From assembly GCA_018897295.1 (NCBI GenBank), contig JAHILA010000014.1, positions 67,891 to 131,890 on the forward strand: a stretch of 64,000 bases of DNA, written 5' to 3'. Under the pieces are notes generated by a model, which saw only the letters and a list, made by a program, of their open reading frames with translations, made no database searches and had not been told where the DNA came from. Within the stretch, counting starts at the first letter, position 1. The number at the start of each line of letters is the position of its first letter. This document shows, piece by piece, positions 19,227-55,583 of the stretch. The position numbers and the translations under genes were made by a program. Source of the DNA: Patescibacteria group bacterium (GTDB taxonomy: Bacteria > Patescibacteriota > Minisyncoccia > RBG-13-40-8-A).

Positions 19227-20387
19227 ATGGAGAGAAAGCGATTAACTTTCTTTATTTTAATAGCAGTTCTAATCGGTATTATTCTTGGAATCCTGCTTTG
19301 GAAAATCCTTAGCCCGAAACTGGGCGAAGGAGTTTTTTATTACCGACTTGATGGGAATAAAGCCAATTTGTTCTTATTAGATAATAAAGGCGAAGGCGAA
19401 AAGATTATTACGGTTGCTGCTCAGGAAGTTGATTTAGGCAAATACAAGCCGCCCCGCCATTCTTTTATTTCGCCGGACAGGCGCCAATTAGTTTATTTTA
19501 AAAAATCAAAGGAAGAGCAGATAGGAGATTTAGGCAACGGCATGATAGCAAGCAGGATTTATTATGATCCGATTCTGGTCAATCTAAAAACCGGAACAGA
19601 AAAGAAAATTGAACAGCCGATTGATTCAACCAGCTTGGTTTTTTCTCCGGATAGCAATAGCATTGCATGGATTAAAGAAATTAAAGATTCAACTTATGAG
19701 GAAATAGAGAAGAACGATACGAAGAGGGAGTTATGGATAAGTATAGCAGACGGTGAAAGTCCGCAACTATTAGCAAAATTTGAGGAAAATGTGCTTTTGT
19801 TAAAGCGCTGGAATGAAGATTATGTCTATTTTCAGGGAATTTTTGATGCGAATATCAAAAGCTTGGGTAGAATAAATATAAAAACCAAGAGAGTAGAATA
19901 TATAATTCCAAAAGGCTGCAATACTAATCTGACCAATTGCCAGAATATAGAATTCTCGCCAAGCGGCAAGATGTTTCTTTACGAGATCTACAGCAAGAAA
20001 AACGATAAGGAAATTACTGAGCTTTATTTGGGCGATTTCGAAAAAAGAGACTATAAACCGGTTTTAACCACAGATAGAATCAGTGACAAAATCTGGCTAG
20101 ATACAGAAAAAGGATTTTTTTACACAGAACAAAAGTCAGGTAAAAACAATGAAATAATTGAGACAATCCACTTGGTTGATTTATACAAGGAAACGGATAA
20201 TGAGATATACTCCGGAAGCTATATCAGCCAACTGGCATTTGACGGTTCCAGTAATTCTTTATACTTTCTTGAGAGGTCAGAAGGAGAAGAGCTGAATATG
20301 TTTAATATTATGAGATTAAATGTAAAAATCAAAGAAGCGGAAAAAATGCTGACCGAAAATTATAACAATATTTTAATCGTGCAGTAA
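19227..20387 (+). CDS. membrane-anchored PD40/TolB-like beta-propeller repeat protein, tentative
   Basis: N-terminal TM; repeated FSPD/FSPSG motifs (FSPDSNSIAW, FSPSGKMFLYEI). Confidence 0.4.
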   Translation: MERKRLTFFILIAVLIGIILGILLWKILSPKLGEGVFYYRLDGNKANLFLLDNKGEGEKIITVAAQEVDLGKYKPPRHSFISPDRRQLVYFKKSKEEQIGDLGNGMIASRIYYDPILVNLKTGTEKKIEQPIDSTSLVFSPDSNSIAWIKEIKDSTYEEIEKNDTKRELWISIADGESPQLLAKFEENVLLLKRWNEDYVYFQGIFDANIKSLGRINIKTKRVEYIIPKGCNTNLTNCQNIEFSPSGKMFLYEIYSKKNDKEITELYLGDFEKRDYKPVLTTDRISDKIWLDTEKGFFYTEQKSGKNNEIIETIHLVDLYKETDNEIYSGSYISQLAFDGSSNSLYFLERSEGEELNMFNIMRLNVKIKEAEKMLTENYNNILIVQ

Positions 20388-21553
20388 TGTTAAAATTCCC
20401 AGAAAATTTTTATTGGGGCACAGCTACATCTGCATATCAAGTGGAAGGAGGGATAAAAAATGATTGGACCTGCCTTGCCGGCAGGCAGGGTGTAGCCGGG
20501 GAAAAATTTGATGCTGGAATTTGTTGCGACCATTACAATCGGTTTGAAGAGGATTTTAATTTAGCAAAAGAGATAAATAATAATGCCCACCGATTTTCAA
20601 TTGAGTGGGCTCGTATTGAACCCGAGAAAGGAAAATTTGACCAAAAAGAAATTGAGCATTACAGAAAAGTAATTTTGGCGCTTAAAGAAAGAGGGCTGGA
20701 GCCGTTTGTGACTTTGTATCATTGGACTCTGCCTGTTTGGTTTGCTGAGAAGGGCGGGCCTGCCTCGCCGAGTCAAGGCGGGTGGTTGAATAAAGACGCA
20801 CCAAAAGATTTTGAAAAATTTGTTGAGAAAATAATATTAGAGTACAAGGATTTAGTTAAGTTTTGGATTACTTTAAATGAGCCGAATGTTTATGTTTCGC
20901 ATTGTTATTTGCGCGGCGACTGGCCGCCATTCGAGAAAAATTACAGCAATTCCCAAAAGGTTTTAAACCAGTTGGTCGAAGCGCATAAATTAGCTTATAA
21001 AAAAATTCACGAAATCTCTCCTCGTGCTATAGTCGGCATAGCTAAGAATAATATTTGGTATCGCGGTATCATAGAATTAGTTTTAAATTATAAATGGAAT
21101 CATTGGTTTTTAAACGAGATTAAGAATTATCAGGATTTTATTGGTTTAAATTTCTATTTTAGTTCTTCTTTTTTAAATTTTATTTTTAAAAACAGGAATG
21201 TTAGTGATCTTGGATGGGGAATTGTGCCAGAAGGGATTTATCACGTTTTAAAAGATTTGAAAAAATACCAGAAACCGATTTACATTACGGAAAACGGCTT
21301 GGCTGATGCCAAGGATGAAAAACGGGCAAAATTCATTATTGAGCATTTAAAATGGGTTCATAAAGCAATTGGAGAAGGAGTTGATGTGCGCGGATATTTC
21401 CATTGGTCGTTATTGGATAATTTTGAGTGGGATAAAGGATTTGAGCCACATTTTGGCTTGATTGAAATTGATTATAAAACTCTTCAACGAATTCCGCGCC
21501 CAAGCAGTAAGGTTTACGCGGGAATTTGTAAGAATAATGGAATAAATTTATGA
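20387..21553 (+). CDS. glycoside hydrolase family 1 beta-glucosidase
   Basis: YQVEGG, TLNEPN (acid/base Glu) and YITENG (nucleophile Glu) GH1 motifs; contains two in-frame GC palindromes. Confidence 0.8.
   Translation: MLKFPENFYWGTATSAYQVEGGIKNDWTCLAGRQGVAGEKFDAGICCDHYNRFEEDFNLAKEINNNAHRFSIEWARIEPEKGKFDQKEIEHYRKVILALKERGLEPFVTLYHWTLPVWFAEKGGPASPSQGGWLNKDAPKDFEKFVEKIILEYKDLVKFWITLNEPNVYVSHCYLRGDWPPFEKNYSNSQKVLNQLVEAHKLAYKKIHEISPRAIVGIAKNNIWYRGIIELVLNYKWNHWFLNEIKNYQDFIGLNFYFSSSFLNFIFKNRNVSDLGWGIVPEGIYHVLKDLKKYQKPIYITENGLADAKDEKRAKFIIEHLKWVHKAIGEGVDVRGYFHWSLLDNFEWDKGFEPHFGLIEIDYKTLQRIPRPSSKVYAGICKNNGINL
20468..20500. repeat. GC palindrome copy (CCTGCCTTGCCGGCAGGCAGG) in frame in the GH1 gene
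   Basis: Encodes CLAGRQGVAGE; CCTGCC/GGCAGG arms. Confidence 0.55.
20752..20785. repeat. GC element copy (GGGCGGGCCTGCCTCGCCGAGTCAAGGCGGGTGG) in frame in the GH1 gene
   Basis: Encodes GGPASPSQGGW; shares GAGTCAAGGCGGG with the copy at 25568. Confidence 0.55.
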
Positions 21554-24942: not shown

Positions 24943-25848
24943 ATGAAAGAAGCATTACTTTACAAAAAATTAGGTGGCAGTAAAGTTCAATGCAATGCGT
25001 GCAATCACAGATGCGTTATATTGGATAAAAAGCGCGGAATCTGCGGAGTGCGTGAAAATCAAAACGGAAAATTATATAGTTTGGTCTACGGCAAAATAAT
25101 TGCCGAACATATTGACCCGATTGAGAAAAAGCCCCTGTATCATTTTTTGCCAGGGACTTTTTCTTTGTCTTTTGCCACGGCTGGCTGTAATTTTCGCTGC
25201 TTGCATTGCCAAAATGCGGATATATCCCAGCTTGGTCCAGACCGCGGTCCCGATCCAAGTCAGGACTATGGTCGGGACAAAACCCCAGAACAGATTGTTC
25301 AAGACGCCTTAGATGGCAAATGCCCGAGCATTTCTTATACTTATACCGAACCAACTGTTTTTGTGGAATTTGCTTTGGATTGCATGAAATTAGCGCATAA
25401 AAAGGGATTAAAAAACATCTGGGTTTCTAATGGATATATGACTAAAGAATGTTTGGACTTAGTTGGTCCTTATTTGGATGCAATTAATATTGATTTGAAA
25501 GGATTTACAGAAAAATTTTATCAGGAAATTTGTGGAGCGCGGCTTAAGCCGGTTTTAGAAAATTTGACCCGTCTCGCGTCGACGAGCTTCGCGAGTCAAG
25601 GCGGGAAAGTCCATTTGGAAATTACAACTCTGATAATTTCTGGCAAGAATGATTCAGAAAAAGAACTAAAAAACATTGCCGAATTTATTAAAAAAGAATT
25701 AGGAGATGAAATTCCTTGGCACGTTTCGCGCTTTTTCCCGCAATATAAATTGTCGGATATCCCATCTACGCCAGTTGAAAAAATTCATCAAGCAGTTGAA
25801 ATCGGCAAAAGGGTTGGTTTAAGATATGTTTATCCGGGAAATGTGTAG
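24943..25848 (+). CDS. AmmeMemoRadiSam-system-type radical SAM enzyme
   Basis: N-terminal C-x2-C-x-H-x-C then CNFRCLHCQN radical SAM motif; two GC-rich in-frame insertions. Confidence 0.75.
   Translation: MKEALLYKKLGGSKVQCNACNHRCVILDKKRGICGVRENQNGKLYSLVYGKIIAEHIDPIEKKPLYHFLPGTFSLSFATAGCNFRCLHCQNADISQLGPDRGPDPSQDYGRDKTPEQIVQDALDGKCPSISYTYTEPTVFVEFALDCMKLAHKKGLKNIWVSNGYMTKECLDLVGPYLDAINIDLKGFTEKFYQEICGARLKPVLENLTRLASTSFASQGGKVHLEITTLIISGKNDSEKELKNIAEFIKKELGDEIPWHVSRFFPQYKLSDIPSTPVEKIHQAVEIGKRVGLRYVYPGNV
25228..25278. repeat. GC-rich hairpin-forming insertion (GTCCCGA...TCGGGAC) in the radical SAM gene
   Basis: Encodes QLGPDRGPDPSQDYGRD right after the CxxxCxxC motif, where relatives have no such segment; produces antisense ORF artefacts. 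Confidence 0.45.
25568..25612. repeat. GC element copy (CTCGCGTCGACGAGCTTCGCGAGTCAAGGCGGG) in the radical SAM gene
   Basis: Encodes RLASTSFASQGGK; shares GAGTCAAGGCGGG with the copy at 20752. Confidence 0.55.
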
Positions 25849-25878: not shown

Positions 25879-26331
25879 ATGGGGAAAATAATCTTAATCT
25901 TAATAATTTTAGGTGTAGTAATTCCTATTTATCTTTTGGCTGTCCAGCCTCGCGTTGCGCGAGTCGAGGCAGGGTTTCCAAATGATCTACCAGGGCCCAA
26001 AATATCGGCTGACAGTAAATTTTATTTTTTGAAAATCTGGTGGGAGAAGATTGTTATATTTTTCACTTTTGGCGCTGAAAACCGGGCGGAAAGATACAAG
26101 GTGTTTGCGGAAAAGAGAGTTATAGAAGCCAAAGAAATGCTTTTAAAGGGAAATACGGAATTAGCCGAGAAGTTGAATGGTGTTTATCAGTCTTATTTGA
26201 ACAAAGCCAAAGATGCGCTAAACAATGCGATTCAAAAAGCGATAGAAAAGCAAAAAGAAAATTTGAAGCAAGCATTAGAGGAAAAACTTGATGAGATAAT
26301 GCAAAAAATTAAGGACTCACTAAGTATATAA
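25879..26331 (+). CDS. membrane-anchored coiled-coil protein, unknown function
   Basis: N-terminal TM, then a K/E-rich helical C-terminus; carries a GC palindrome at 25945-25975. Confidence 0.4.
   Translation: MGKIILILIILGVVIPIYLLAVQPRVARVEAGFPNDLPGPKISADSKFYFLKIWWEKIVIFFTFGAENRAERYKVFAEKRVIEAKEMLLKGNTELAEKLNGVYQSYLNKAKDALNNAIQKAIEKQKENLKQALEEKLDEIMQKIKDSLSI
25945..25975. repeat. GC palindrome copy (CCTCGCG-TTG-CGCGAGTCGAGGCAGGG)
   Basis: Perfect CTCGCG/CGCGAG arms; encodes QPRVARVEAG. Confidence 0.5.
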
Positions 26332-28824: not shown

Positions 28825-30288
28825 ATGAATAAGTATGAACCTACAATTGGGCTGGAGATTCACGTTGAATTAAAAACAAAGACAAAAATGTTTTGTTCTT
28901 GTTTGAACGACCCTCTGGAAAAAGAAGCAAATAAAAATATTTGTCCGATTTGTACTGCTCAGCCAGGGAGTTTGCCTGTTATTAACGAAGAAGCAATTTA
29001 CAGTGTAATAAAAGCAGGATTGGCTTTAAACTGCAAAATTGCAGAGAAAACTTGGTTTGAAAGAAAGAATTATTTTTACCCTGATTTGCCAAAAGGTTAT
29101 CAGATTACGCAATTTGAAGCTCCTTTATGTTTTAAGGGAGAATTGAATAATATTAAAATCAGGAGAATACATTTGGAAGAAGATACTGGAAGATTAATGC
29201 ATGACAAAGGCGATCTACCTGCCGGTAGGCAGGGATATTCTTTAGTTGATTATAATCGCGCTGGCATGCCTTTAATGGAACTAGTTACAGAGCCGGACAT
29301 CCATTCTGCTGAACAGACAAAGAATTTTGCCCAAGAATTGCAATTAATTTTAAGATATCTGGGAATTTCCGATGCTGATATGGAAAAGGGACAGATGCGC
29401 GTGGAAGCAAATATAAGTTTAAATATGGGCACAAAAGTTGAAGTGAAAAACCTTAATTCATTCAAGAGCGTTGAAAAAGCAATTGAATACGAGATTATCA
29501 GGCAGCAAAGGATTTTGGAAAAAGACGACCTGCCTGCCGGTAGGCAAGGTAAGGTAGAACATGAAACAAGAGGATGGAATGACGCGAAGCAGGAAACATT
29601 CTCCCAGAGAATAAAGGAAACATCTGATGATTATCGTTATTTCCCAGAGCCGGATTTGCCGCCACTAGACATTAAAGCTGAATTGATTAAGAAATTGCAG
29701 GCAGAAATTCCTGAGTTGCCGCAAGCAAGAAGGAAAAGATTTAAAAGAGAGTATAAATTACCAGAAAAAAGCGCAGAAGTATTGGTGAATTTTAAATATT
29801 TGGCTGATTTTTTCGAGCACGCAGTAAGCGAGCTTAATGCTTGGCTAAAGTCGGGCAAGATTAAAACCGATATCAATAGATTGATAATTTTAAGCTCCAA
29901 TTATATTATTACTGAGTTTCCAAAATTTGTTTCTACAAGTCGGGAGATTAAAATAACTGCGGAAAATTTTGCAGAATTGATTTATTTGACTTTTATCGGC
30001 GAGGTTTCCTCAAGCGGGACGCAGGAAGTTTTAAAAGAAATGTTTAGAACTGGCGCAGACCCTTCGCAAATTATTGAATCTAAAAACCTGAAGCAATTAA
30101 GCAAAGAAGGGGACTTGGATAAGATTGCGGAGAAAATAATAAAAAACAATCCCCAGCCAGTTGAGGATTACAAGCAAGGAAAGGAAACCGTATTGCAGTT
30201 TTTAGTTGGTCAGGCAATGCGCGAGACCAAAGGCAAAGCCAATCCCGAGATAGTTGCCAAGATATTGCGGGATATATTGACAAAATGA
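28825..30288 (+). CDS. gatB: Asp-tRNA(Asn)/Glu-tRNA(Gln) amidotransferase subunit B
   Basis: YEPTIGLEIHVELKTKTKMFCSC N-terminus and C-terminal GatB/YqeY domain; two in-frame LPAGRQG insertions. Confidence 0.9.
   Translation: MNKYEPTIGLEIHVELKTKTKMFCSCLNDPLEKEANKNICPICTAQPGSLPVINEEAIYSVIKAGLALNCKIAEKTWFERKNYFYPDLPKGYQITQFEAPLCFKGELNNIKIRRIHLEEDTGRLMHDKGDLPAGRQGYSLVDYNRAGMPLMELVTEPDIHSAEQTKNFAQELQLILRYLGISDADMEKGQMRVEANISLNMGTKVEVKNLNSFKSVEKAIEYEIIRQQRILEKDDLPAGRQGKVEHETRGWNDAKQETFSQRIKETSDDYRYFPEPDLPPLDIKAELIKKLQAEIPELPQARRKRFKREYKLPEKSAEVLVNFKYLADFFEHAVSELNAWLKSGKIKTDINRLIILSSNYIITEFPKFVSTSREIKITAENFAELIYLTFIGEVSSSGTQEVLKEMFRTGADPSQIIESKNLKQLSKEGDLDKIAEKIIKNNPQPVEDYKQGKETVLQFLVGQAMRETKGKANPEIVAKILRDILTK
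29215..29234. repeat. GC palindrome copy (CCTGCCGGTAGGCAGG) in gatB
   Basis: Encodes DLPAGRQGY. Confidence 0.6.
29527..29549. repeat. GC palindrome copy (CCTGCCTGCCGGTAGGCAAGG) in gatB
   Basis: Encodes DDLPAGRQGK, about 310 nt from the first copy. Confidence 0.6.
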
Positions 30289-30708: not shown

Positions 30709-32580
30709 TCAGGCGAATTTTTTAAACCAGGTAAGCTGGCGCTTGGCATATTGAAGAGTATGGAGTTTAATCGTCTCGATGATTTGTTTTCTGTTCTCGG
30801 AGTTTTTCCATTCTGCGTAGCCAATAGTATTTTTCAATACTGTTGTCCAGCCATATTTTTTGACTAATTTATTCACTTCTTTTTCCAGCCCCATTTTAAT
30901 CATTTTATCAACCCTTTTATCTATTAATTTTTTCAGCTCTGCTGAAGATTTTTCAATTTTAATATACTGGACACTGAATCGGGGACTGCTTTTTAATTGA
31001 GGTATTGGTTTATTGGTTTTAATGATAATCTCCAACGCCCTGATTAATCTGCGTTTGTTTTTAGCATCAATATTTTTTGCTCGATTCGGGTCGAGTTTTT
31101 TTAATTGTTTAAATAATTCTTTCTCGGTTTTCTTTTCTAATTCTTTTCTTAATTTCCAATCAGGTTTAACTTCTGGAATTACTATTTCATTAACCATTGC
31201 CTGAATATAAAATCCAGTGCCGCCGCAAATAATCGGTGTTTTTCCTTGTTTATAAATTTTATCTATTGCTTGTAATGCCAATTTTTTGTACTCTGTGACA
31301 CTAATCTGTTTTTGGGGATTAGCAATATCTATTATATGGTGAGGGATGTCTTGCATTTCTTTCTTCGTGGTCTTGCCTGTGCCAATATCCATTCCTTTAT
31401 AAACTTGCCTTGAATCAGCTGAAATAATTTCACCATTTATTTTTTTAGCCAGTTTGATGGCAAAAGTGGATTTTCCCGAAGCAGTTGGTCCAATAATGAC
31501 AATCAGTTTAGGTTTTGTTTTGGTTAATTTATTTAAAACTCTCCACCTCCTTACCTTTTCTTTCCATAGGACATCGTCTTTAAATCTGCTGGCCAACGTT
31601 CCGGGCCTGGTTGAATATTTATTAATATAAGCCATGTCAAATCCGACTTTTTTGAATAATCCGACTGTATTCTCAAATTGTTTTTTTGTTTCGCCGGGAA
31701 AACCCACAATTACATCTGTGGTAATTTTTGCTTGAGGGATTTTTGCACGGATTTTTCTAATTAAATTAAGATATTTTTCTGTTGTGTATCCGCGATTCAT
31801 CTTTTTCAGAATTTCATTGTCTCCACTTTGAACCGGTAAATGGATTTCTTTGCTGATTTTTGGCGATTCAGTGATTACATCAATCAATTCTGCGGAGAAA
31901 TCTTTAGGATGGGAAGTAAGAAATTTTACTGTAAAATCACCCGGGATTCCGGAAATAAGTTTAAGCAATATTGGAAAAGTAGTTTTGCCACCCTGCGGGT
32001 GGTCAGCCGTGGGCTGATCTTTATATGAATTAACGTTTTGTCCGAGTAAAATAATCTCTTTATATCTATTTTTAATGAGATTTTTTATTTCAAAAATTAT
32101 ATTTTTTGTTGATCTTGAAACCTCTCTGCCGCGGGTGTAGGGGACTGCGCAGTAAGAGCAGAAATTGTTGCAGCCGGTCATTATGGGTACAAATGCTGAT
32201 TTTTGATTTGTCTGCCTCGCTGGCAGGCAGGCCTGCCTGCCAGCGAGGCAGGAGTATTTTGGTTTCATCTCCAGATATTTTTTCCCGAGAAATTCATTGA
32301 TTGATAAAATCTCGTTAAAGAAAGATTTAAATTTAGGTTTATCTGCCTTTAAAACGCAGCCAGTTAAAATTTTCTTTGCCTTGATTTTTGCAAATTTTTT
32401 CTTTAGGCCGAAGATTCTATCAATCGCGCTTTGTCGTATAGAGCAGGCGACAACTACTATCAGGTCAGCATTTTCCATTTTATCCGTATTCCTATAATTT
32501 CGTTGTTCTAAAAATGAAGCGATTCTCTCGGAATCGCTTTCATTCATTTGGCAGCCGAATGTTTTGATGTAATACCTCAT
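30709..32580 (-). CDS. bifunctional fusion: MiaB-like radical-SAM methylthiotransferase (N-terminal, no TRAM domain) plus tRNA dimethylallyltransferase MiaA (C-terminal)
   Basis: N-terminus MRYYIKTFGCQMNESDSE (MTTase N domain) and CNNFCSYCAVPYTRGRE radical SAM motif; C-half GPTASGKST P-loop and ADSRQVYKGMDIGTGK MiaA motifs. Confidence 0.75.
   Translation of the reverse strand: MRYYIKTFGCQMNESDSERIASFLEQRNYRNTDKMENADLIVVVACSIRQSAIDRIFGLKKKFAKIKAKKILTGCVLKADKPKFKSFFNEILSINEFLGKKYLEMKPKYSCLAGRQACLPARQTNQKSAFVPIMTGCNNFCSYCAVPYTRGREVSRSTKNIIFEIKNLIKNRYKEIILLGQNVNSYKDQPTADHPQGGKTTFPILLKLISGIPGDFTVKFLTSHPKDFSAELIDVITESPKISKEIHLPVQSGDNEILKKMNRGYTTEKYLNLIRKIRAKIPQAKITTDVIVGFPGETKKQFENTVGLFKKVGFDMAYINKYSTRPGTLASRFKDDVLWKEKVRRWRVLNKLTKTKPKLIVIIGPTASGKSTFAIKLAKKINGEIISADSRQVYKGMDIGTGKTTKKEMQDIPHHIIDIANPQKQISVTEYKKLALQAIDKIYKQGKTPIICGGTGFYIQAMVNEIVIPEVKPDWKLRKELEKKTEKELFKQLKKLDPNRAKNIDAKNKRRLIRALEIIIKTNKPIPQLKSSPRFSVQYIKIEKSSAELKKLIDKRVDKMIKMGLEKEVNKLVKKYGWTTVLKNTIGYAEWKNSENRKQIIETIKLHTLQYAKRQLTWFKKFA
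32212..32252. repeat. tandem inverted GC palindrome (perfect 41-nt palindrome) in frame in the miaB domain
   Basis: CTGCCTCGCTGGCAGGCAGG-C-CTGCCTGCCAGCGAGGCAG; encodes CLAGRQACLPARQ on the minus strand. Confidence 0.65.
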
Positions 32581-34298
32581 TTTATTTTCTTGATAAATCC
32601 TTCAATTTTCATCATTCCGATATCTCCTTTTTCTCTGGTTCTTACGCGAACAGATTTATTTTTTATTTCTTCATCTCCAACTACAAGCATATAAGGGATT
32701 TTTTGTATTTCTCCCTCGCGGATTTTTTTAGAAACAGTTTCGTTTTCATTCTTTACTTTAATTCTTAAACCATGAGTCATAAGTTTTTCTTTGATTTGCT
32801 CGGCATATTTCGCGTGGCGGTCTCCAATAGGAATAACATAAACCTGGATAGGGGAGAGCCAGAATGGCAAAGCACCAGCATAATTTTCAAGCAAAACCCC
32901 GATGAATCTTTCTATTGAACCAAGCAGGGCTCGATGAACCATATATGGCCTTTGTTTTTTGCCTTTGTCGTCAATATAAGTCAAATCAAATTTTTCCGGC
33001 AGATTAAAGTCAAACTGGACAGTAGTGCATTGCCATTCCCTTCCTAATGAATCTTTGATTTTGATATCAATTTTCGGCCCGTAAAAAACCCCTCCGCCTT
33101 TATCAACTTGGTATTTTAGATTCAATTTATTTAAGACATTTTTTAGAGTATTGGTTGCTTTTTCCCAATTCTTCGGAGTTCCTACATATTTTTCCGGCCG
33201 AGTAGCCAGATAAATATTATATTCTTTAAATCCAAATTCTTTTAGAAGTTTGATGCCGAATTTTACAGCAGCCATCATTTCATCAGCCAATTGGTCCGGG
33301 GTGCAGATTATGTGCGCATCATCCTGGGTAAATCCTCTGACTCGGGTCAAGCCATGCAGAACTCCGGAACGTTCAAACCTATAAACCGTACCGAGTTCTG
33401 CCCAGCGTACGGGCAAATCTCTGTAGCTTCGGCTTTTGGTCTTATAGATTTTCATGTGGAACGGGCAGTTCATCGGCTTGATTAAGTATTTATCGCCTTC
33501 AACTTGCATTGGGCCGAACATATTTTCTTTGTAAAAATCAGTATGGCCTGATGTTTGCCAGAGTTTTATCCGGCCGATATGGGGAGTGTCGATTATTTCA
33601 TAGCCGTTTTTTAGATGTTCATTAACCCAGTAATTTTCAATTACTCCCTTTAAAGCCGTTCCCTTAGGATGCCAGAGGATTAGTCCCGGTCCGACTTCTT
33701 CGTCAATGCTGAATAAATCCAGTTTTTGGCCGATTAAACGATGGTCGCGCTTTTCCGCTTCTTTGATTTGTTTCAGATAAGCATCCAACTCTCCTTTAGT
33801 ATTAAAAGCAATTCCGTAAATTCTTTGCAGCATGGGATTTTTTTCATCTCCGCGCCAATAAGCGCCAGCGATTTTTGTCAGCTTAAATGCATCAGGATTA
33901 ATTTCCTTTGTGGATTTTACGTGCGGGCCTTTGCATAAATCAGTAAAATCTCCGCTAATATAAATAGTTGCGTTTTTGCTGTCGAGGTCTTTTATAAGCT
34001 CCAATTTATATGGCTGGTTTTTGAATAATTTTATAGCTTGTGACTTGGGGACTAATTTTCTTTTGAATTCAATATTTTGTTTGATTAGCTCGCGCATTCT
34101 TTTTTCAATCTTCGGTAGATCTTCTGGAACTAAGGTCGCCCTCGCCTTCGCTCCGCGAGCTTCGGCGGGCAAATGGAAGTCGTAGTAAAATCCGTTCTCA
34201 ATTGTCGGGCCAATAGCAAATTTAGTTCCAGGAAATAATTCCTGAACTGCATATGCCATAATGTGGCTTATTGAATGTCGTATTGTATCAATTTTCAT
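32577..34298 (-). CDS. thrS: threonyl-tRNA synthetase
   Basis: TGS/editing N-region, class II core motifs, anticodon-binding C-domain; 4-bp overlaps with flanking genes. Confidence 0.9.
   Translation of the reverse strand: MKIDTIRHSISHIMAYAVQELFPGTKFAIGPTIENGFYYDFHLPAEARGAKARATLVPEDLPKIEKRMRELIKQNIEFKRKLVPKSQAIKLFKNQPYKLELIKDLDSKNATIYISGDFTDLCKGPHVKSTKEINPDAFKLTKIAGAYWRGDEKNPMLQRIYGIAFNTKGELDAYLKQIKEAEKRDHRLIGQKLDLFSIDEEVGPGLILWHPKGTALKGVIENYWVNEHLKNGYEIIDTPHIGRIKLWQTSGHTDFYKENMFGPMQVEGDKYLIKPMNCPFHMKIYKTKSRSYRDLPVRWAELGTVYRFERSGVLHGLTRVRGFTQDDAHIICTPDQLADEMMAAVKFGIKLLKEFGFKEYNIYLATRPEKYVGTPKNWEKATNTLKNVLNKLNLKYQVDKGGGVFYGPKIDIKIKDSLGREWQCTTVQFDFNLPEKFDLTYIDDKGKKQRPYMVHRALLGSIERFIGVLLENYAGALPFWLSPIQVYVIPIGDRHAKYAEQIKEKLMTHGLRIKVKNENETVSKKIREGEIQKIPYMLVVGDEEIKNKSVRVRTREKGDIGMMKIEGFIKKIK
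34135..34171. repeat. GC element copy in the thrS N-terminal region
   Basis: GCCCGCCGAAGCTCGCGGAGCGAAGGCGAGGGCGAC on the coding strand; encodes LPAEARGAKARATL. Confidence 0.5.
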
Positions 34299-37200
34299 AT
34301 AATTTCTTCTGCATTATCACAGAGGATTTTTAGTTGGTCGTCTTTATCAGTCAGGCGGCCCTCGACCAAGATGACTTTTCCTTCCTGCCAAATGGTCGGA
34401 TTTTTTTCCAAAATTGTGGCAAAGACCAAGATTTCTATCGCGCTGGTCAAGTCCTCCGCTTTTACAAACAGCATCGGCTTGCCGGATTTGGTAATAAATT
34501 TGGTAATCTTGATAATTACCCCTGCAATTTTAACTTTACTATCTTTTTTCTCTTTGAGCAAGTCCCTAATCTGGATTATTTTGCCTTTCAAGAAGCCTTC
34601 GTGGTTTTTAAGCGGATGGTCAGAGATATACATTCCCAGTAAATCTTTTTCCCATTGGATTTCCTCGCTTAACAATTTTCTTTTTCCATTGCCGTTTCCG
34701 TTAGTGAATAATAATTGGTTTTTATTTGTTATTAGTTCTTCGCCGAATAAGCTGGCTTGGCCGTTATCTTTTGTTTTTTGCGATTCTTTAGAGAATTCCA
34801 AGAGTTCCTCTAAATGTTCTAATAATTCTTTTCTTTGGGCAAGAGCATCGAATGCTCCTGCGCGGATTAAGTTTTCCAGAGATTTTTTATTGATAATTGC
34901 TGATTTCCCCGCTTGAGGAGTAAGGCGAGTGAGGAAACCAGCCATGGTTTGAAAATTTCCATTTTGCTTTCTTTCTTCAACAATTGCTGCCACAACATTA
35001 TGACCTACGTTTTTTATTGCTGCTAATCCGAAGCGAATTGATGGAGGCCCGCCTGCCGGCGAGGCAGGGACGAGCGTAAAATTATCAAAACTTTCATTGA
35101 TATCCGGAGCTAAAACCTGGATGCCCATTTTTTTCGCCTCATCAACTAAAATATTAATCCTATCCAGGTCTTTTTGGTCTGCCTGCATTAAAGCAGTGAT
35201 AAATTCCTCTGGATAATTCGCTTTTAAATAAGCTGTCTGGTAAGCAATTAGAGCATAACAGGTTGCATGAGAACGATTAAATCCATATTGGGCAAATGGC
35301 TCGATAGAATCCCATATTTTCTGTGCGATTTCTTTATCAATTCCGTTTTTCACCATGCCGTCAATCATTTTATCGGCCTGCTGTTCAAGTAGTTTTCTAA
35401 TTTTTTTGCCGACTGCTTTTCTCAAAACATCTGCTTCGGACATGGTAAATCCCGCTAAATCTTTTGCAATTTGCATCAGTTGTTCCTGGTAAACAGTAAT
35501 GCCGTAAGTATTTTTCAGGATTGGCTCGAGTTTCGGATGGACATATTTAATTTCTTTTTCTCCGTGTTTCCGGGCAATATAATCGGGAATCAAATCCATG
35601 GGTCCGGGCCGGTATAAAGAAATCATGACAATAATGTCTTCTAAGTCATTTGGTTTTAATTTCTGCAAATATTTTCTCATGCCGGAAGATTCCAATTGGA
35701 ATACCCCGACTGTATTTACTCTTTTGAAAAGTTCAAAGGTTTTTTTGTCGTCTAATGGTATATCATCAATATTAATTTTAATTCCCCGGAGTTTTTCAAT
35801 GAGATTTAAAGCTGTTTCAATAGTGGTTAGATTTTTTAAGCCGAGAAAATCCATTTTTAAGAGTCCAAGCGCTTCAATGCTGTGCATTTCATATTGAGTG
35901 ACAATAGAATTCTCGTCCTGCGGTGCAAATTGGCGCGGAGCATAAAAATCAATCGGATTTTTAGTGATTACAATTCCGCAGGCATGGGTTGAAGCATGGC
36001 GGGCAACGCCTTCTAATTTCGTAGCAATATCAATCAATATTTTTACCTGGTCATCAGTGTCGTAGGATTGGGAAAGTTCGGGAACCTTTTCTAGGGCTTC
36101 TTTTAATCCAAAGCCGAAAGGAATCATTTTAGCAATTTGGTCGCAGAAAGCATAGGTATAGCCGAGAGCTCTGCCAGTGTCTCTGATTGCAGCGCGGCTG
36201 GCCATTGTTCCAAAAGTAATAATTTGGGCAACGTGGTCAGCTCCGTATTTTTTTGCAACGTAATTAACAATTTCATTTCGTCTAATATCGGCAAAATCTA
36301 AATCAATATCAGGCATACTTATTCTTTCCGGATTAAGAAATCTTTCAAAAAGAAGTTTGTATTTCAGCGGGTCGACATTAGTGATATTTAAAAGATAAGA
36401 GACAATCGAACCTGCTGCTGAACCTCTTCCTGGCCCGACGACAATGTTGTTATTTTTTGCCCAATTAACTACGTCCTGGACAATCAGGAAGTACGAAGCG
36501 AAGCCGGTTTTTTCAATAACCCCCAATTCAAATTTCAGTTGTTTTTTTGCCTGGTTGAGATTTTCTCCAAAGTCTCTTTTGCGCAATCCTTTTTCGCATA
36601 ATTTTTTCAGATAAGAATTCGCTGTTTCGTCTTCAGGAAGAGGAAAGTGGGGAAGCTCGATTTTATCAAGCTCCAGTTTAAGGTTGCACATATCAGCGAT
36701 TTTCTGGGTGCTTTCAATCGCTTCCGGAATATTGCGAAATGCGCTAATCATTTCATCGGGCGGTTTCAGGGAATAATCTTCGCCTTTCATAGTCATTCTG
36801 TTTTTTTCACCAACAGTGCGGTTGGTCTGGACGCAAAGCAGAACATCGTGCACATCAGCATCTTCTTTGTTTAAATAATGAACATCATTAGTGGCAACCA
36901 ATGGCAAATTTGTTTCTTTTGCTAGTTTGACAATCTTTTCATTCAGACGGACCTGGTTTAAATCATTCGGATGGTCCATTATTTCAAGATAAAAATTGTC
37001 CTTGCCGAAAAGTTTTGAATATTCTAAGGTAAGTTTTTTTGCTTTGGCAATGTCGTCAGCCAGAAGCGCGGACGGAATTTCTCCTTGCGGACAGGCGGTC
37101 AGAGCAATCAGTCCCTCGTGATACTCTTTCAAAATTTCTTTGTCGATTCTCGGCTTATAATAAAAACCCTCAAGATGGGCTTTGGTTACGAGTTTGATTA

Positions 37201-37573: not shown

Positions 37574-37888
37574 ATGCCAGTACCAAAACAAAGACATACC
37601 AAAAGCAGAAGAAATAGGCGAAGATCTCATCTTAAATTAAAGAAGAGAACTTTAGGTAGCTGTCCGAAATGTGGAGAGCCGATTTTGCCGCATCATATCT
37701 GCGCTTTTTGCGGATTTTATAATGGTGTAGAAAGAATTGATGTTCTGGCGAAATTAGAGAAGAAAGCCAAGAAGAAAAAGGAAAAAGAACTAAAAGAACA
37801 CGAAGGAGAAGTTAAAGAAACAGCAAAAGCCATGCCTACCGGCAGGCAGGTCAAACCATTAAGTTTAGAAGAATTGTCTAAAAAATAA
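37574..37888 (+). CDS. rpmF: 50S ribosomal protein L32 with a long K/E-rich C-terminal extension
   Basis: [22 protein letters not shown] and CPKCG...CAFCG zinc ribbon; 104 aa versus about 60 typical. Confidence 0.85.
37834..37850. repeat. GC palindrome copy (CCTACCGGCAGGCAGG) in the rpmF tail
   Basis: Encodes MPTGRQV. Confidence 0.5.
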
Positions 37889-37889
37889 T

Positions 37890-38333
37890 ATGTCTTCAAG
37901 GCACATTGCTCGCTCAATAGTCTTGCAATCTTTATACGAACTGGATTTCAACTTCGCCCGTGGGCGAGACAAGCAAGAGAAAAATCTTAATATTGATAAA
38001 GTTATTGAAAGAAACAAACAGGAATTTGGGTTAGGAATTGAAGAAAATGAATTCATAAATAATTTGGCGCACGGGGTTTTAGAGCATCAATCACAGATTG
38101 ATGATATTATTACTAAGTCAGCTCCAGAATGGCCTTTGAACCAGATTACTATTGTTGACAGGAATGTGCTGAGAATCGGGATTTATGAATTATTGTTCGG
38201 CGATAAAGAGCAAGTTCCGCCGAAAGTGGCAATTAATGAAGCAATTGAATTAGCCAAAGGTTATGGCGGGGACAGCTCTGGCAGATTTGTAAATGGAGTT
38301 TTGGGGACGATTTTTAGAGAAATGAATAAATAA
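37890..38333 (+). CDS. nusB: transcription antitermination factor NusB
   Basis: [14 protein letters not shown] and [26 protein letters not shown] NusB motifs. Confidence 0.8.
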
Positions 38334-39082: not shown

Positions 39083-39472
39083 ATGTTAAAAATACGATTA
39101 CAGAGAATTGGAAAAAAGAATAGCCCGAGCTTTCGGGTTGTTTTGGTTGAACACACCATGAGGCCTCAGGGAAAATTTTTGGAACTGCTTGGCTCATATA
39201 ATAAAATTCAGAAACAGAAGAGTTTTAATAAAGAAAGAATCTTGTATCGGATTTCCAAAGGAGCGCAAGTTTCTCCAACCGTGCATAATTTATTAGTTGA
39301 TGAAAAGATTATTGATAAACCAAAGGTAAAAGCATGGAAGCCCAAGAAAAAAACAGTCGAAGAGGCGAAGAATGTTGTACCTCCGACGCCCGCTGAAGGC
39401 GGGGTCGGAGTCCCGACCTCTCCGCCAGATGCGGAGAGCGTCGGGATTGACATAGAACCAAAAAAGGAATAA
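39083..39472 (+). CDS. rpsP: 30S ribosomal protein S16 with C-terminal extension
   Basis: MLKIRLQRIGKKNSPSFRVVLVE S16 N-terminus; start moved to the internal ATG at 39083 (the ORF-track start at 39047 adds a non-conserved leader); the GC-rich tail (39380-39445) encodes PTPAEGGVGVPTSPPDAESVG. Confidence 0.8.
   Translation: MLKIRLQRIGKKNSPSFRVVLVEHTMRPQGKFLELLGSYNKIQKQKSFNKERILYRISKGAQVSPTVHNLLVDEKIIDKPKVKAWKPKKKTVEEAKNVVPPTPAEGGVGVPTSPPDAESVGIDIEPKKE
39380..39445. repeat. double GC hairpin element in the rpsP 3' tail
   Basis: CCGACGCCCGC-TGAA-GGCGGGGTCGG and GACCTCTCCGC-CAGAT-GCGGAGAGCGTC. Confidence 0.5.
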
Positions 39473-40842: not shown

Positions 40843-41436
40843 ATGGTTTATGATAATAAATTAAAACAAGTTTCGAAAGTCGCTGTTTTTATAGATAACA
40901 GTAATGTATTTAAAATTATTCAGTATTTAAGAAAATCAGACCCTAAATGGATTAGTCTTTACGATCCGTTAAAATTGGCTGAAAAATTGGTAGGAAATAG
41001 AAATTTGGCGTATGTAGGATTTTATTGCGTCCAGCCACCTTCTTACTTATTAGGCGAAGATGAATGGCATATTAAAATATATAAAATTACACAAAAATAT
41101 TATTCCGAAATTGAAAAAATGCCCTTGGTACATGTAAAATATGGAAATCTAAGGGGTCCAAAAGGTTCCTTGCAAGAGAAAAATGTTGATACGCAACTTG
41201 CTACTGATATGGTAGCCATGGCAGCTACTGGTGCATATAATACGGCAATTATAGTTTCTAATGACGGAGATTATGAGAGCGCAGTTAATTTAGTTAAAAA
41301 TACATTTGGCAAAAAGGTGGAGGTGGTTTTTTTCAAGGGACGTCTTTCAATGAACCTAGAAAAGTCATGTGATGTTAAAAGAAGGGCACGACGTTCCTTT
41401 TTTGAATTATTAGATTTTGATAAAAATACATTTTAA
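40843..41436 (+). CDS. NYN-domain (LabA/DUF88-like) protein
   Basis: VAVFIDNSNV, EKNVDTQLATDM, SNDGDYESAV motifs of NYN/LabA nuclease-like domains. Confidence 0.6.
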   Translation: MVYDNKLKQVSKVAVFIDNSNVFKIIQYLRKSDPKWISLYDPLKLAEKLVGNRNLAYVGFYCVQPPSYLLGEDEWHIKIYKITQKYYSEIEKMPLVHVKYGNLRGPKGSLQEKNVDTQLATDMVAMAATGAYNTAIIVSNDGDYESAVNLVKNTFGKKVEVVFFKGRLSMNLEKSCDVKRRARRSFFELLDFDKNTF

Positions 41437-41837: not shown

Positions 41838-42086
41838 TTAAACACATAATTAATTAACCCCAGTAGTACAAACCTTTGGTTTGACTACGGGGCAAGCATA
41901 ATTCTTATGTAAAAAGAGCGAACAATTAAACGTACTTTAAAACAGAGTTTAGTTTTGGAATTTAGTTCAAAAATTGAGCTCTGTTTTAAATTGTTCTTTA
42001 AAATAGAAATATGTAATTGTACAGTAAGTTTGTGTGAGTTATTAGAGATCGAATCTTTTATAGTTGTTCTGATACAACTAAAATTA

Positions 42087-43560
42087 TTATTGAGAGTTTG
42101 ATCCTAGCTCAGGACGAACGCTGGCGGCGTGGATAAGGCATGCAAGTCGAATGGGTTTAGACCCATGGCGAACGAGTTAGTAACACGTAGGTACATCCCT
42201 CTGACTTGGGCATAACCCCGCGAAAGCGGGGATAATTCCCAATGGTGTCCCGATTTATCGGGACTAAAGGTTCCGGTGCAAATCGGAATCGGTGAGAGAG
42301 TGGCCTGCGGCCTATCAGCTAGTTGGTGAGGTAATAGCTTACCAAGGCTATGACGGGTAGGGGGCGTGAGAGCGTGTTCCCCAACGAGGGCACTGAGATA
42401 CGGGCCTTACTCCTACGGGAGGCAGCAGTCGAGAATCTTCCACAATGGGCGAAAGCCTGATGGAGCGACGCCGCGTGCATGAAGAAGTCCTTCGGGATGT
42501 AAAATGCTTTTATAAGGGAGCAATTTTTTGAGTGTACCTTATGAATAAGGGGTTGCTAAACTCGTGCCAGCAGCAGCGGTAATACGAGTGCCCCAAGCGT
42601 TGTCCGGAATTACTGGGCGTAAAGCGTCTGTAGGGGGTTTGATACGTCTTCTGTTAAATTTCGATGCTCAACATCGGAGCTGCAGGGGAAACGGTCAGAC
42701 TAGAGAGTGTGAGAGGCTGATGGAACTTAAGGAGTAGGGGTGAAATCCGTTGATACTTTAGGGAACACCAAAGGCGAAGGCATTCAGCTGGTGCATTTCT
42801 GACCCTGAGAGACGAAAGCGTGGGGAGCAAAAAGGATTAGATACCCTTGTAGTCCACGCCCTAAACTATGAATACTAGCTGTCTGAAGTATCGACCCTTC
42901 AGGTGGCGAAGCTAACGCGTTAAGTATTCCGCCTGGGAAGTACGGTCGCAAGACTAAAACTCAAAGGAATAGACGGGAGCTTGCACAAGCGGTGGAGCGT
43001 CTGGTTTAATTCGATGATAAGCGTAGAACCTTACCAGGACTTGAAATTCTAGTGAAACCCCGATGAAAGTCGGGTCTTCTACAAGGACACTAGAACAGGT
43101 GCTGCATGGTTGTCGTCAGCTTGTGGCGTGAGTTGCTCCGTTAATTCGGGTAACAAGCGCAACCCCTGTTGTCTGTTATATGTGTCAGACGAAACTGCCC
43201 CGTGATACGGGGAGGAAGGTAGGGATGACGCCAAATCAGCATGGCCCTCTGATGTCCTGGGCAACACAGGCGCTACAATGGCCGATACAATGGGTTGCCA
43301 AGCCGTAAGGTGGAGCCAATCCCATCAAAGTCGGTCCCAGTTCGGATTGGGGTCTGCAATTCGACCCCATGAAGTTGGAATCGCTAGTAATCGCAGATCA
43401 GCTACGCTGCGGTGAATACGTTCTCAAGCTTTGTACTCACTGCCTGTCACACCAGAGAAGCCGGGGGCACCTGACATTCTCGCATTGCGGGACCTAAGGT
43501 GAATTCGGTGACTAGGGTGAAGTCATAACAAGGCATCCGTAGGGGAACCTGTGGATGGAA
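42087..43560 (+). rRNA. 16S ribosomal RNA (3' boundary uncertain; canonical anti-SD not present after helix 45)
   Basis: AGAGTTTGATCCTAGCTCAG 5' end, internal universal blocks, 3' GTAGGGGAACCTGTGGATGGA; 515-site variant GTGCCAGCAGCAGCGGTAA. Confidence 0.9.
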
Positions 43561-43671
43561 AATATTTTTACTTAGTAACCATTTTGGATGCTAAGGAGAG
43601 TCGATTGAATCCGCCTTTGCGTAAAGCTTCGGCGGACAAGAGGGATTTAGATTTTTGTCCAAATAAAAATC

Positions 43672-43991: not shown

Positions 43992-44048
43992 AAGATTTTA
44001 AAAAATCTTATCAAAATTAATCCCGCGACGCGGGATTAATTTTGAGAA

Positions 44049-44120
44049 GGGCGTGTAGTTCACCGGTAGAACGCTTCACTGATAATGAAGAAGTAGAAGG
44101 TTCGACTCCTTCCACGCCCA
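44049..44120 (+). tRNA. tRNA-Ile (anticodon GAT)
   Basis: Manual cloverleaf: GGGCGTG/CACGCCC acceptor, anticodon loop CTGATAA, T-arm GAAGG-TTCGACT-CCTTC. Confidence 0.8.
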
Positions 44121-46412: not shown

Positions 46413-47136
46413 GGTAGTGTTGTTAGTTTATATGAGAAAAAACCAAAAACAATTTATAAAAAAGAGCGGTTGATAAAACCAGGTATTTTCATACCCGTGG
46501 ATGTCAAACCGCTAAAAGCGGTTTTTTCAATCCTGAACTTTGAAAATTGAATATGTATAGCAAGTAATAAAAGTAATAATAAGTAGTAGTATCTATAAAT
46601 TGCCAGCTATATTAAGCAGGTTATATATTAAGGGTGTATGGTGGATGCCTTGACATTAGAAGACGAAGAAGGACGTGGCGTAACTGCGATAAGCCTCGGG
46701 GAGGTGTGTAGCGACCTTAGATCCGGGGATGTCCGAATGGGGAAACCCAATATAGTGATAAACTATATTATCCCGACTTTATTGTTGGGAGGTGAACTCG
46801 GCGAAGTAAAACATTTCAGTAGCCGGAGGAACAGAGAAAAACTTTATTCCCCAAGTAGTGGCGAGCGAAAAGGGAAGAGCCCAAACCTGATGGTCCCGCA
46901 TTTGTGGGATTATTAGGGGTAGTAAGATAGTGACGTCGGGAGAAATCCCGGGGAGTGAATACAAAACTAAGACTTCCTTAGTTGAAAGGGATGGAAAGCC
47001 CTACCGAAGAAGGTAATAGTCCTGTAAGCGAAAAGGGTCTTATACTCCTAGTCATTAATCTTGAGTACCGCGAGAACATGCAGTCTCGCGGGAATCATCC
47101 TGAACTATCTAGGAAAGGCTAAATACTTCTAATGAT

Positions 47137-49347: not shown

Positions 49348-50104
49348 AATATTGCTACTTCACGAAGTAATTCGTGATGACAATGTGGCTTATAACGGTG
49401 AAGTCTTAATAAAATATGGTCTATTGATAATCATTATTGCATCGGTCCAATAATAATGATACAATTTAATTGAGGACCAGATAATTATTAAGATAATACC
49501 GTGGGAAGTCGATCTAAAATTAATTATGCGTATATTGCAGGATTTCTTGATGGTGATGGAAGTTTAATGTTTCAAATCAAAAAACGGAAAGATGGCAAAT
49601 CTAAAATAAGATTTATGCTGACTATCTGTTTTTATCAAGATTCTAGACATGCAAAACCACTATACTGGATTAAAAGAGTTTTGAGGATAGGTTATATCTC
49701 AAAACGTAAAGACGGAATTACTGAATTAAGGATTAACGGTTTTAAGCAGATTAAGGATATAGTGGGGAATTTAATTCCATTTATCAAATTTAAGAAAGTC
49801 CAAGCAAAAGCAATATATAGCGCTGCGAATCTTTTGAATTGTGTAAAAAACAAGGATTTATCTGAGAAAGATTTACACAGGTTAATAAATTATATTCTGG
49901 TGATTCAGAATAATAATTATGTGACCAAAAAAAAGAAGACTAAAAAAGATTTGTTAAAGATTTTAGATTTGACCCCGTAACGACTTGATCCGATTTCCAT
50001 CGGATCGGAGTTCAGTAGAAATACTGAGCTAATACGCCACTACCCTAATTCCGATTAACGTCGGAATGGGTAAAGATATAGTCTGCGCACATAGTGATAT
50101 GTGA
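49348..50104 (+). mobile_element. intron (probably group I) in 23S rRNA carrying a homing endonuclease gene
   Basis: Insertion between exon sequences CCCTAGTA and CGAGAGGACC; contains the LAGLIDADG ORF; boundaries approximate. Confidence 0.6.
49501..49980 (+). CDS. LAGLIDADG homing endonuclease (intron-encoded)
   Basis: YIAGFLDGDGSLMF LAGLIDADG motif; 159 aa, single-motif type; located inside the 23S gene. Confidence 0.85.
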   Translation: MGSRSKINYAYIAGFLDGDGSLMFQIKKRKDGKSKIRFMLTICFYQDSRHAKPLYWIKRVLRIGYISKRKDGITELRINGFKQIKDIVGNLIPFIKFKKVQAKAIYSAANLLNCVKNKDLSEKDLHRLINYILVIQNNNYVTKKKKTKKDLLKILDLTP

Positions 50105-55022: not shown

Positions 55023-55583
55023 ATGAACGGACAAAATAAAACAGTTTATGTATTTATAGACGCATCAAATGTTTGGAATGCGGTTAAGTCGGTAAAAAAG
55101 TTTATTGAATACAAAACTCTTAAAGATTATTTTAGGAAAAATTTTAACGCAGACAAGGTTGAAATTTTTTATTATGACGCCTATCCAAAAACCGGAACAA
55201 GAGATTATGATTTGGATGGAAAGCATAAATTCTTTACTTATCTTAAAAAGGGGCTTGGTTTTACCGTAAGAAAAAAAGAATTAAAAAGAATCTCTGTTAT
55301 TAGCGAGAGCGGAGAATCTATTATAGAAAAAGGAAATATGGATGTGGAAATAACGATTGACGCAATGCATAACATTCATAAATATAATATAGCCATTTTT
55401 TTTAGCGGCGACGCTGATTTTCTTGCGCTGGTGAATTATTTGAAAAACGGCGGCAAAAAGGTTTATATCTTTTCGTCAGAAGATAATATTTCTCACGAAC
55501 TAAAAACTGGCGGGGATGGTTATTTTGATTTGAAAGATATACATGAATTTTGGGGTAAAGATTTAAAACATCGTGTAAAATGA
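55023..55583 (+). CDS. NYN-domain (LabA/DUF88-like) protein
   Basis: VFIDASNVWN, GNMDVEITIDAM, SGDADFLALV motifs. Confidence 0.6.
   Translation: MNGQNKTVYVFIDASNVWNAVKSVKKFIEYKTLKDYFRKNFNADKVEIFYYDAYPKTGTRDYDLDGKHKFFTYLKKGLGFTVRKKELKRISVISESGESIIEKGNMDVEITIDAMHNIHKYNIAIFFSGDADFLALVNYLKNGGKKVYIFSSEDNISHELKTGGDGYFDLKDIHEFWGKDLKHRVK

Follow-up and report, generated by a model that had tools for sequence, protein, structure and literature searches.

A 40-nt palindrome in a Patescibacteria MiaB-MiaA gene as a probable head-to-head doublet of a short dispersed hairpin repeat

The palindrome and its host gene

The 64,000-nt stretch of contig JAHILA010000014.1 analyzed here (Patescibacteria group bacterium, assembly GCA_018897295.1, positions 67,891 to 131,890; hereafter, the window) contains a minus-strand open reading frame (ORF) of 623 aa, and the coding sequence of this ORF carries a perfect GC-rich palindrome. 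Since the ORF comprises UPF0004, radical SAM, and IPP-transferase domains, it was identified as a MiaB-MiaA fusion in which the TRAM domain is absent. Pfam analysis of the identical protein P0001, encoded by contig JAHION010000002.1 of the Patescibacteria metagenome-assembled genome GCA_018895295.1, returned PF00919, PF04055, PF01715, and PF01745. The gene is surrounded by those encoding DnaE, ThrRS, a hypothetical protein, GatB, ThyX, and dCMP deaminase. In the homologue search, at least 8000 matching candidates were scored, and all counts of homologues given below refer to the best 120 of them. Nearly all of these are MiaB-MiaA fusions, mostly metagenomic, and the few with a name belong to Patescibacteria; TRAM was present only in a few distant ones (P0107, P0110, and P0116).

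In alignments with orthologues, residues 111–124 of the window protein fall opposite a gap. This in-frame insert, CLAGRQA followed by CLPARQT (CLAGRQACLPARQT), ends 13 residues ahead of the first radical-SAM cysteine; the CNNFCSYC motif, read from the sequence, occupies residues 137–144, and its cysteines C137, C141, and C144 are invariant in the alignment of MiaB homologues. A first-pass annotation of the window had placed the palindrome in the MiaB part just upstream of this motif, and that position was confirmed. According to the AlphaFold model, which was built with 23 homologues, the insert lies within a coil segment (residues 102–126) with no secondary structure and a predicted local distance difference test score (pLDDT) below 50. 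In the model this segment follows the N-terminal methylthiotransferase domain and precedes the first strand of the radical-SAM core, and the insert is thus predicted to occupy a disordered linker.

The palindrome itself (CTGCCTCGCTGGCAGGCAGG|CCTGCCTGCCAGCGAGGCAG) covers positions 32212–32251 and consists of two 20-nt arms without a spacer, so that it is identical to its own reverse complement; the G+C content of the window is 37.6%. The axis of symmetry falls between G32231 and C32232, and the outer G32252 and T32211 do not pair. The annotation had described a perfect palindrome of 41 nt, ending at 32252, around an unpaired central C. The perfection of the repeat stood, whereas its length had to be reduced to 40 nt and it has no central base. 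As a single strand, this region forms a hairpin with 18 bp in the stem and 4 nt in the loop, with an energy of −26.2 kcal/mol for DNA (z = −8.4) and −41.6 kcal/mol for the RNA hairpin (z = −7.5); judging from these energies, cruciform extrusion and pausing of polymerase or ribosome are possible. In a stem-loop scan of the window (loops of 3–12 nt), it was the longest GC-rich stem. The runner-up, which ranks second in length among GC-containing stems, is a 35-nt palindrome at 44011–44045 with a mostly A+T stem of 16 bp (TCAAAATTAATCCCGCGACGCGGGATTAATTTTGA); it immediately precedes a tRNA at 44049 and is unrelated to the repeat family described below.

The whole window was searched with the 21-mer CCTGCCTGCCAGCGAGGCAGG, allowing up to three mismatches. 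Five matches were obtained, including three outside the palindrome, compared with none in 100 shuffled sequences, a number well above what chance would give. The search divided the palindrome into a minus-strand unit (unit A) and a plus-strand unit (unit B), which corroborates the earlier proposal of two inverted copies of a repeated element.

An insert of any kind was present at the MiaB site in only three of the 120 homologues, namely the window protein with its 14 residues, P0002 (80% identity, CLAGGQA), and P0022 (63% identity, HLTGGQA, the cysteine being replaced by histidine in the corresponding locus L013). The peptide therefore varies between relatives, from CLAGRQA to CLAGGQA and HLTGGQA. 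Unit A aligns with the single copy of P0002 (locus L012) and of P0022 (L013) and is orthologous to the lone unit of these relatives, and unit B was found in none of the 118 other homologues examined. Comparison with MiaB orthologues, a check which the annotation had proposed, gave zero, one, or two units at one and the same boundary between serine and asparagine codons. No unit occurs in L009–L011 (AAACATTCG|AACCAA), a single 21-nt unit in L002–L007 and L012 (CCTGCCTCGCCGGCGGGCAGG), in degenerate form also in L008 and L013, and two units in the window. The L012 unit differs from unit A at two positions, and the single-unit allele of the relative was identical in six JGI/ENA/Logan assemblies. 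Since the number of units at this codon boundary ranges from 0 to 2 among the orthologues, the units were gained one at a time: unit A predates the split from the closest relative, and unit B was added later beside it, inverted, in the window lineage. The statement that the elements insert as hairpin units thus holds as regards a discrete hairpin unit of about 21 nt, as seen from the orthologues, whereas the mode of insertion does not follow from the doublet itself.

Most probably, the palindrome represents two copies of a 20–21-nt GC-rich hairpin repeat, joined head to head and presumably tolerated in a linker; spread of the repeat in trans is a less certain part of this reading. The doublet is real and an ordinary member of its family.

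The repeat family in the window and in other genomes

The family follows the pattern CCTGCC-N8/9-GGCAGG, with a unit of 20–21 nt. Its canonical unit is a 20-nt perfect palindrome, CCTGCCTGCCGGCAGGCAGG, which, read by hand, is free of stop codons in all six frames. A relaxed stem search of the window (CCTGCC/GGCAGG, loop 3–11, up to one mismatch) gave 17 overlapping matches, which correspond to eight units at seven sites (Table 1); shuffled sequences gave 0–2 matches. Support for the family also comes from five further GC-rich inserts, in frame, whose presence differs among the syntenic relatives. All eight units lie within ORFs, and many genomes commonly contain abutting doublets, so the annotation's view that such a palindrome is unusual inside a gene applies only in a relative sense.

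Table 1. Coordinates of the MiaB-MiaA gene, its insert, and the family units in the window
Feature	Position	Strand	Remarks
MiaB-MiaA fusion gene	30709-32580	-	623-aa ORF; UPF0004 + radical SAM + IPP transferase, TRAM absent
14-codon in-frame insert	32209-32250	-	42 nt, codon-aligned; residues 111-124; gap in orthologue alignments
Radical-SAM CxxxCxxC motif CNNFCSYC	32149-32172	-	residues 137-144, read from sequence
Unit A, 21 nt	32211-32231	-	1 mismatch to CCTGCCTGCCAGCGAGGCAGG; reverse of master unit; protein-proximal, CLAGRQA
Unit B, 21 nt	32232-32252	+	exact master unit CCTGCCTGCCAGCGAGGCAGG, 0 mismatches; protein-distal, CLPARQ(T)
Family unit	10601-10621	-	within PMT-type glycosyltransferase gene 9948-11720
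Family unit	20469-20489	-	within glycosyl hydrolase family 1 (GH1) gene 20387-21553
Family unit in GatB (LPAGRQG)	29215-29235	+	in window and L012; not in L011, L013
Family unit in GatB (DLPAGRQ)	29527-29547	+	window only (versus L011, L012, L013)
Family unit in DnaE (ASPAGG, minus strand)	35048-35068	+	in window and L012; not in L011, L013
Family unit in the gene of ribosomal protein L32 (AMPTGRQ)	37829-37850	+	in window, L012, L013; not in L011

Twenty-one genes of the window were aligned with those of the relatives L011, L012, and L013; the syntenic part of the window consists of housekeeping genes. In this comparison, at a protein identity of about 90% between genomes, the units and several other GC-rich palindromic inserts vary in presence with codon exactness. 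Four units are common to the window and L012, none occurs in L011, and the second unit of GatB and the second unit of MiaB occur in the window only. Among the three close genomes, whose relationship is nearly a trichotomy, the grouping of the window with L012 is weakly favoured (34, 22, and 25 informative sites). In L011, the units of L32 and MiaB are missing although the outgroup L013 has them, a pattern that requires exact loss or else repeated gain at one site. The other inserts that vary in this way are located in MiaB (31987–32013), ThrRS (34143–34169), NusB, S16, and at 25231 and 25585.

In-frame GC-rich palindromic inserts unrelated to the family were observed at 31987–32013, 34143–34169, 37953–37970, 39383–39412, 25231–25254, 25585–25605, 25942–25970, and 20744–20785. 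They are mostly lineage-specific (for example, PTADHPQGG, PAEARGAKA, FARGRD, and PTPAEGGVGV), and it follows from them that several hairpin-repeat families coexist in the source genome.

As for other genomes, the 20-mer from the centre of the doublet, GGCRGGCAGGCCTGCCYGCC, gave at least 120 matches in contigs representing one genome per species. Among the matches listed, carriers belonged to many classes of Patescibacteria and to Bacteroidota, Omnitrophota, Planctomycetota, Ignavibacteria, Caldiserica, and others; the cultured Bacteroidota Flavobacterium stagni and Aequorivita viscosa also contain it. Exact 40-nt doublets of the canonical unit, inverted doublets of asymmetric variants, and abutting heterotypic pairs recur in these genomes. 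In loci with a G+C content below 50%, 16 of the 68 doublet matches listed lie within ORFs of at least 150 aa. The canonical 20-mer was detected in 35 viral-contig stretches, and the exact 21-mer of unit B in 56 metagenome stretches representing approximately 39 distinct sites, 58% of which fall within ORFs of at least 120 aa, in both orientations and in several frames. The exact 40-mer of the window had no match among 241 million metagenome records, and the window doublet is therefore not itself a repeated unit. Searches of the literature for the unit sequences and peptides, together with searches specific to the candidate phyla radiation, retrieved nothing relevant.

Direct repeats of 5–12 nt flank the units at 11 of 79 sites, and some of these repeats are part of short tandem repeats; the control gave 1 of 79. 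Flanking direct repeats of 7–12 nt accompany roughly every seventh unit, e.g., GAAATTG|unit|GAAATTG (L190, L214, L210, L212, L136, L142, and L152); some of these repeats are inside heptamer tandem repeats, and a variable target duplication and a preference for repeat tracts are candidate causes.

Two kinds of tandem array were also observed. At the end of a viral contig (L167, 3911–4142), there are 11 perfect tandem copies of the 21-nt unit CAGGCCATGCCTACCGGCAGG, the variant that the window has as its L32 insert; the array may be genuine or the product of a loop in the assembly. The Bacteroidota loci L045, L048, L092, L096, L110, and L128 contain tandem arrays with a period of about 37–39 nt, made up of CCTGCCTGCC-loop-GGCAGGCAGG hairpins whose loops do not differ. 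Because their spacers are identical, these arrays are not CRISPR-like.

GIY-YIG genes near the units and known hairpin-repeat systems

ORFs of at least 100 aa were clustered from the fetched loci with a G+C content of up to 52%, and the ORF family most widely shared near the units was that of a stand-alone GIY-YIG protein of about 84 aa. A GIY-YIG profile search detected 15 ORFs across the fetched loci. Among 11 independent loci, the GIY-YIG gene is located no more than 60 nt from a unit in six and no more than 150 nt in eight; neither count was reached in any of 5000 permutations. When viral contigs were searched starting from the gene, three of five loci showed units of the family or similar to it within approximately 130 nt, one of the three (L227) being on a contig already retrieved by means of the unit pattern. 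The neighbouring GIY-YIG proteins show only weak matches, namely with TIGR01453, the UvrC N-terminus, and the structures 1zg2 and 1ywl of UPF0213 proteins.

The GIY-YIG genes often adjoin tRNA genes, where a partial 5' copy of the tRNA holds a unit in its D-loop. In L025 (6776–7175), L116 (1926–2338), L227 (480–900), L226 (1230–1600), and L229 (225–400), a small GIY-YIG gene lies directly upstream of an intact tRNA. Ahead of the gene stands a 5' fragment of this same tRNA, its D-loop GGTA|GAGC split by one or two hairpin units; by eye, the units of L229 are in the variable-arm region of the tRNA-like sequence. The arrangement in these five loci looks like a tRNA-targeting GIY-YIG cassette. A tRNA intron was considered for the doublets flanked by D-arm sequences in L025 and L116 and rejected, since ARAGORN gives an intact tRNA-Phe downstream and the split copies are 5' fragments.

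In the course of events proposed here, a short dispersed palindromic element without stop codons, with a CCTGCC/GGCAGG stem and a loop of about 8–9 nt, was resident as one unit at the codon boundary, and a second unit joined it in inverted orientation in the window lineage. The resulting 42-nt insert preserves the reading frame; the enzyme presumably tolerates it, and the encoded peptide probably has no role in itself. Units of this family have also colonised GatB, DnaE, L32, and other genes of the source genome, and the family is present in many phyla and in viral contigs. With lower confidence, a small stand-alone GIY-YIG nuclease may spread or process the units in trans as single-stranded DNA hairpins, a route that would parallel those of Ssn nucleases with their hairpin repeats and of RAYT with REP/REPIN.

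Among published systems, the Ssn family comes nearest. Its members, small nucleases of the GIY-YIG type, cleave single-stranded DNA beside hairpin repeats flanking their own genes, an architecture which the authors of that work liken to insertion sequences and to REP/RAYT (PMC11893778). Several traits are shared with the family described here. The repeats, such as NTS/dRS3 of Neisseria, are hairpin-formers of 20–50 nt in many copies, and dRS3 (ATTCCC-N8-GGGAAT) has a 6-bp stem and an 8-nt loop, the same geometry as CCTGCC-N8-GGCAGG (PMC11893778). They flank small single-domain GIY-YIG genes, as the units do in other genomes, though not in the window; and the system is found in many phyla and is abundant in reduced genomes such as those of Rickettsia and Wolbachia (PMC11893778). 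In contrast, the degenerate motif published for Ssn, including its 5' GTCWY arm, does not match the CCTGCC/GGCAGG units, and NTS is intragenic in 2% of cases (PMC11893778), whereas all eight window units are intragenic.

With REP/REPIN elements the family shares short imperfect palindromes, many dispersed copies, and inverted doublets that form a longer hairpin; for these elements, mobilisation in trans in the form of single-stranded hairpins is assumed, the responsible enzyme being single-copy and its gene flanked by the repeats (PMC3116915, PMC3337134). As a short repeated palindrome of 20–40 nt, the window family agrees with them, with 8 units per 64 kb against 0–2 matches in shuffled sequences. 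However, REPs are extragenic and lineage-specific, whereas the window units are all within genes and the CCTGCC/GGCAGG unit crosses phyla. REPIN arms are separated by a spacer, which the window doublet lacks; its exact 40-mer is unique, and doublets are common elsewhere. The partner of REPs is the Y1 HUH transposase RAYT. A RAYT or another transposase was considered as the mobiliser in the window and rejected, as none was found there among the scanned ORFs.

Palindromic elements of Rickettsia measure about 100–150 bp and are not known outside Rickettsiales, whereas the units described here are of 20–21 nt, too short for that class, and occur across phyla. The two are alike in being in-frame palindromic repeats in protein genes, including housekeeping ones, of small AT-rich genomes, and in being translated and tolerated in surface or linker regions (PMC1166351, PMC1458961). 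Mitochondrial GC clusters, too, are very short GC-rich hairpins dispersed in compact AT-rich genomes, found occasionally in protein and rRNA genes and having no known transposase of their own (PMC2800124, PMC4478555); they differ in being organellar, in their unrelated sequences, and in that association with a nuclease is unreported.

Several observations weigh against spread by a nuclease of this kind. The GIY-YIG profile search of the 64-kb window returned no ORF, and neither Y1_Tnp nor any other transposase was found in Pfam scans of 30 ORFs from its non-syntenic parts. The Ssn motif HGTCWYN(0-2)YYVSBRHN(0-5)WNVSBRGN(0-2)RNCYNB had no match in the window, the doublet, or the canonical doublet, in a search that found the NTS control. 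The only PDB matches of the neighbouring GIY-YIG proteins are UPF0213 proteins. A fixed target-site duplication was rejected because of the direct repeats at only 11 of the 79 sites, and the empty sites (TTCG|AAC, GCGAC|CAT, GAAGAC|GGC, CCC|CCA, and AAAA|GTT) have no consensus motif.

Because of the mismatch with the Ssn motif and a window in which these searches gave no GIY-YIG or transposase gene, we only infer the link of such a nuclease to the MiaB doublet. The family, cross-phylum, intragenic in reduced genomes, and associated with GIY-YIG genes, is apparently undescribed. A wider reading, which we regard as speculative and rather doubtful, is that cross-phylum elements of about 20 nt, mobilised as single-stranded DNA by tiny, stand-alone, Ssn-like GIY-YIG nucleases often located beside tRNA genes, colonise essential genes in frame in ultra-small Patescibacteria genomes; repeated gain or exact loss at one site, as in the 0, 1, or 2 units at one boundary, would then reflect site-specific action of the nuclease. 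If true, tiny hairpin repeats would quite generally cause proteins to vary in length in bacteria with the most reduced genomes and would account for many GC-rich "low-complexity" inserts in Patescibacteria proteins, and the recently reported pairing of GIY-YIG single-strand nucleases with hairpin repeats would extend to new phyla, a new repeat sequence, and an intragenic habitat. The units can serve as presence/absence markers among close relatives and call for caution in annotation and alignment of Patescibacteria genomes.

Origin of the second unit and further features of the window

The doublet fits equally a second insertion adjacent to the resident unit and a local fold-back duplication, in which template switching during replication or repair would have copied unit B from unit A. 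For the duplication speak the arms, complementary in 20 of 20 positions at zero spacing, the uniqueness of the exact 40-mer, which would make the doublet a local product, and the fact that unit B mirrors unit A exactly even though the single L012 unit does not match unit A. The identity of the arms is, however, explained without local copying, since the 21-mer is a widespread master sequence known at about 39 other sites, and the borders of the duplication coincide exactly with those of the unit. Moreover, abutting heterotypic pairs are frequent in other genomes (e.g., L018, L036, and L194) and cannot be fold-back copies because they join two different unit subtypes. The master status of the 21-mer and these pairs support a second insertion beside the resident unit, and we consider the duplication a plausible but somewhat less probable origin. 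The count of doublet orientations, 24 inverted versus 0 direct, was discarded as evidence, since searching with a palindromic pattern favours inverted pairs from the outset; L167 has a 21-nt tandem array in direct orientation.

It is unlikely that the 42-nt doublet is itself the mobile form and that single units are its decayed halves, although REPINs are inverted REP doublets (PMC3116915) and perfect doublets adjoin GIY-YIG genes in L025, L037, L059, L097, and L116. The 40-mer lacks metagenome matches against 56 for the single 21-mer, sites with a single unit outnumber those with a doublet by 6 to 1 in the window, and the one-unit relatives would need to have lost the same half twice. Still less can be said for a selected hairpin acting as an antisense terminator, as an element of mRNA stability or translation pausing, or through additional Fe-S cysteines. 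A consensus scan did indicate a terminator-like structure on the plus (antisense) strand, with the tail AGTATTTTGG, the RNA hairpin is very stable, and two cysteines are added near the cluster motif. Yet the palindrome lies in the middle of the gene, the sense strand has no T-tract, the T-rich tail being on the antisense strand only, and no intrinsic terminator was thus recognised. The insert is missing in 117 of the 120 homologues, its peptide is not conserved, with the cysteine changed to histidine in L013, and the unit is translated in different frames and orientations in other genes; a function at the protein level was accordingly rejected, as neither residues nor reading frames are conserved. 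Nothing suggests that the palindrome is under selection, and the MiaB doublet is most likely a tolerated passenger. That the gene is essential, as the annotation had it, is not supported; miaB is dispensable in E. coli.

An assembly artefact, with one real unit and an inverted copy made by the assembler, appears the least probable explanation. Chimeric reads can yield perfect palindromes, and the three deposits of the window protein may share related source samples. Nevertheless, the extra copy is exactly 21 nt long, in frame, internal to a 132-kb contig, and of a sequence known at many sites; at 40 nt, the palindrome is shorter than the usual assembly k-mers and reads. GenBank has the identical 623-aa protein under three accessions (MBU4285053.1, MBU4458324.1, and MCG2695921.1), each from a different contig of about 132 kb (the longest 131,987 bp, the one examined 131,944 bp); on JAHION010000002.1, the insert falls at about 31845–31886. 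These three records and the six concordant single-unit assemblies of the relative make an artefact unlikely.

Other features of the window were noted in passing. The rRNA genes are dispersed: between the 16S gene (42086–43570) and the 23S gene at 46618 lie two tRNAs, a Mur ligase gene of opposite strand, and a gene for a mechanosensitive channel. A LAGLIDADG endonuclease ORF (49501–49980) separates the 23S rRNA match, which ends at 49342, from the 5S rRNA (50411). In addition, the window contains two genes of TrwB/TraG/HerA-like coupling ATPases (5296–6834 and 12137–14593) and two NYN-domain genes (40843–41436 and 55023–55583).

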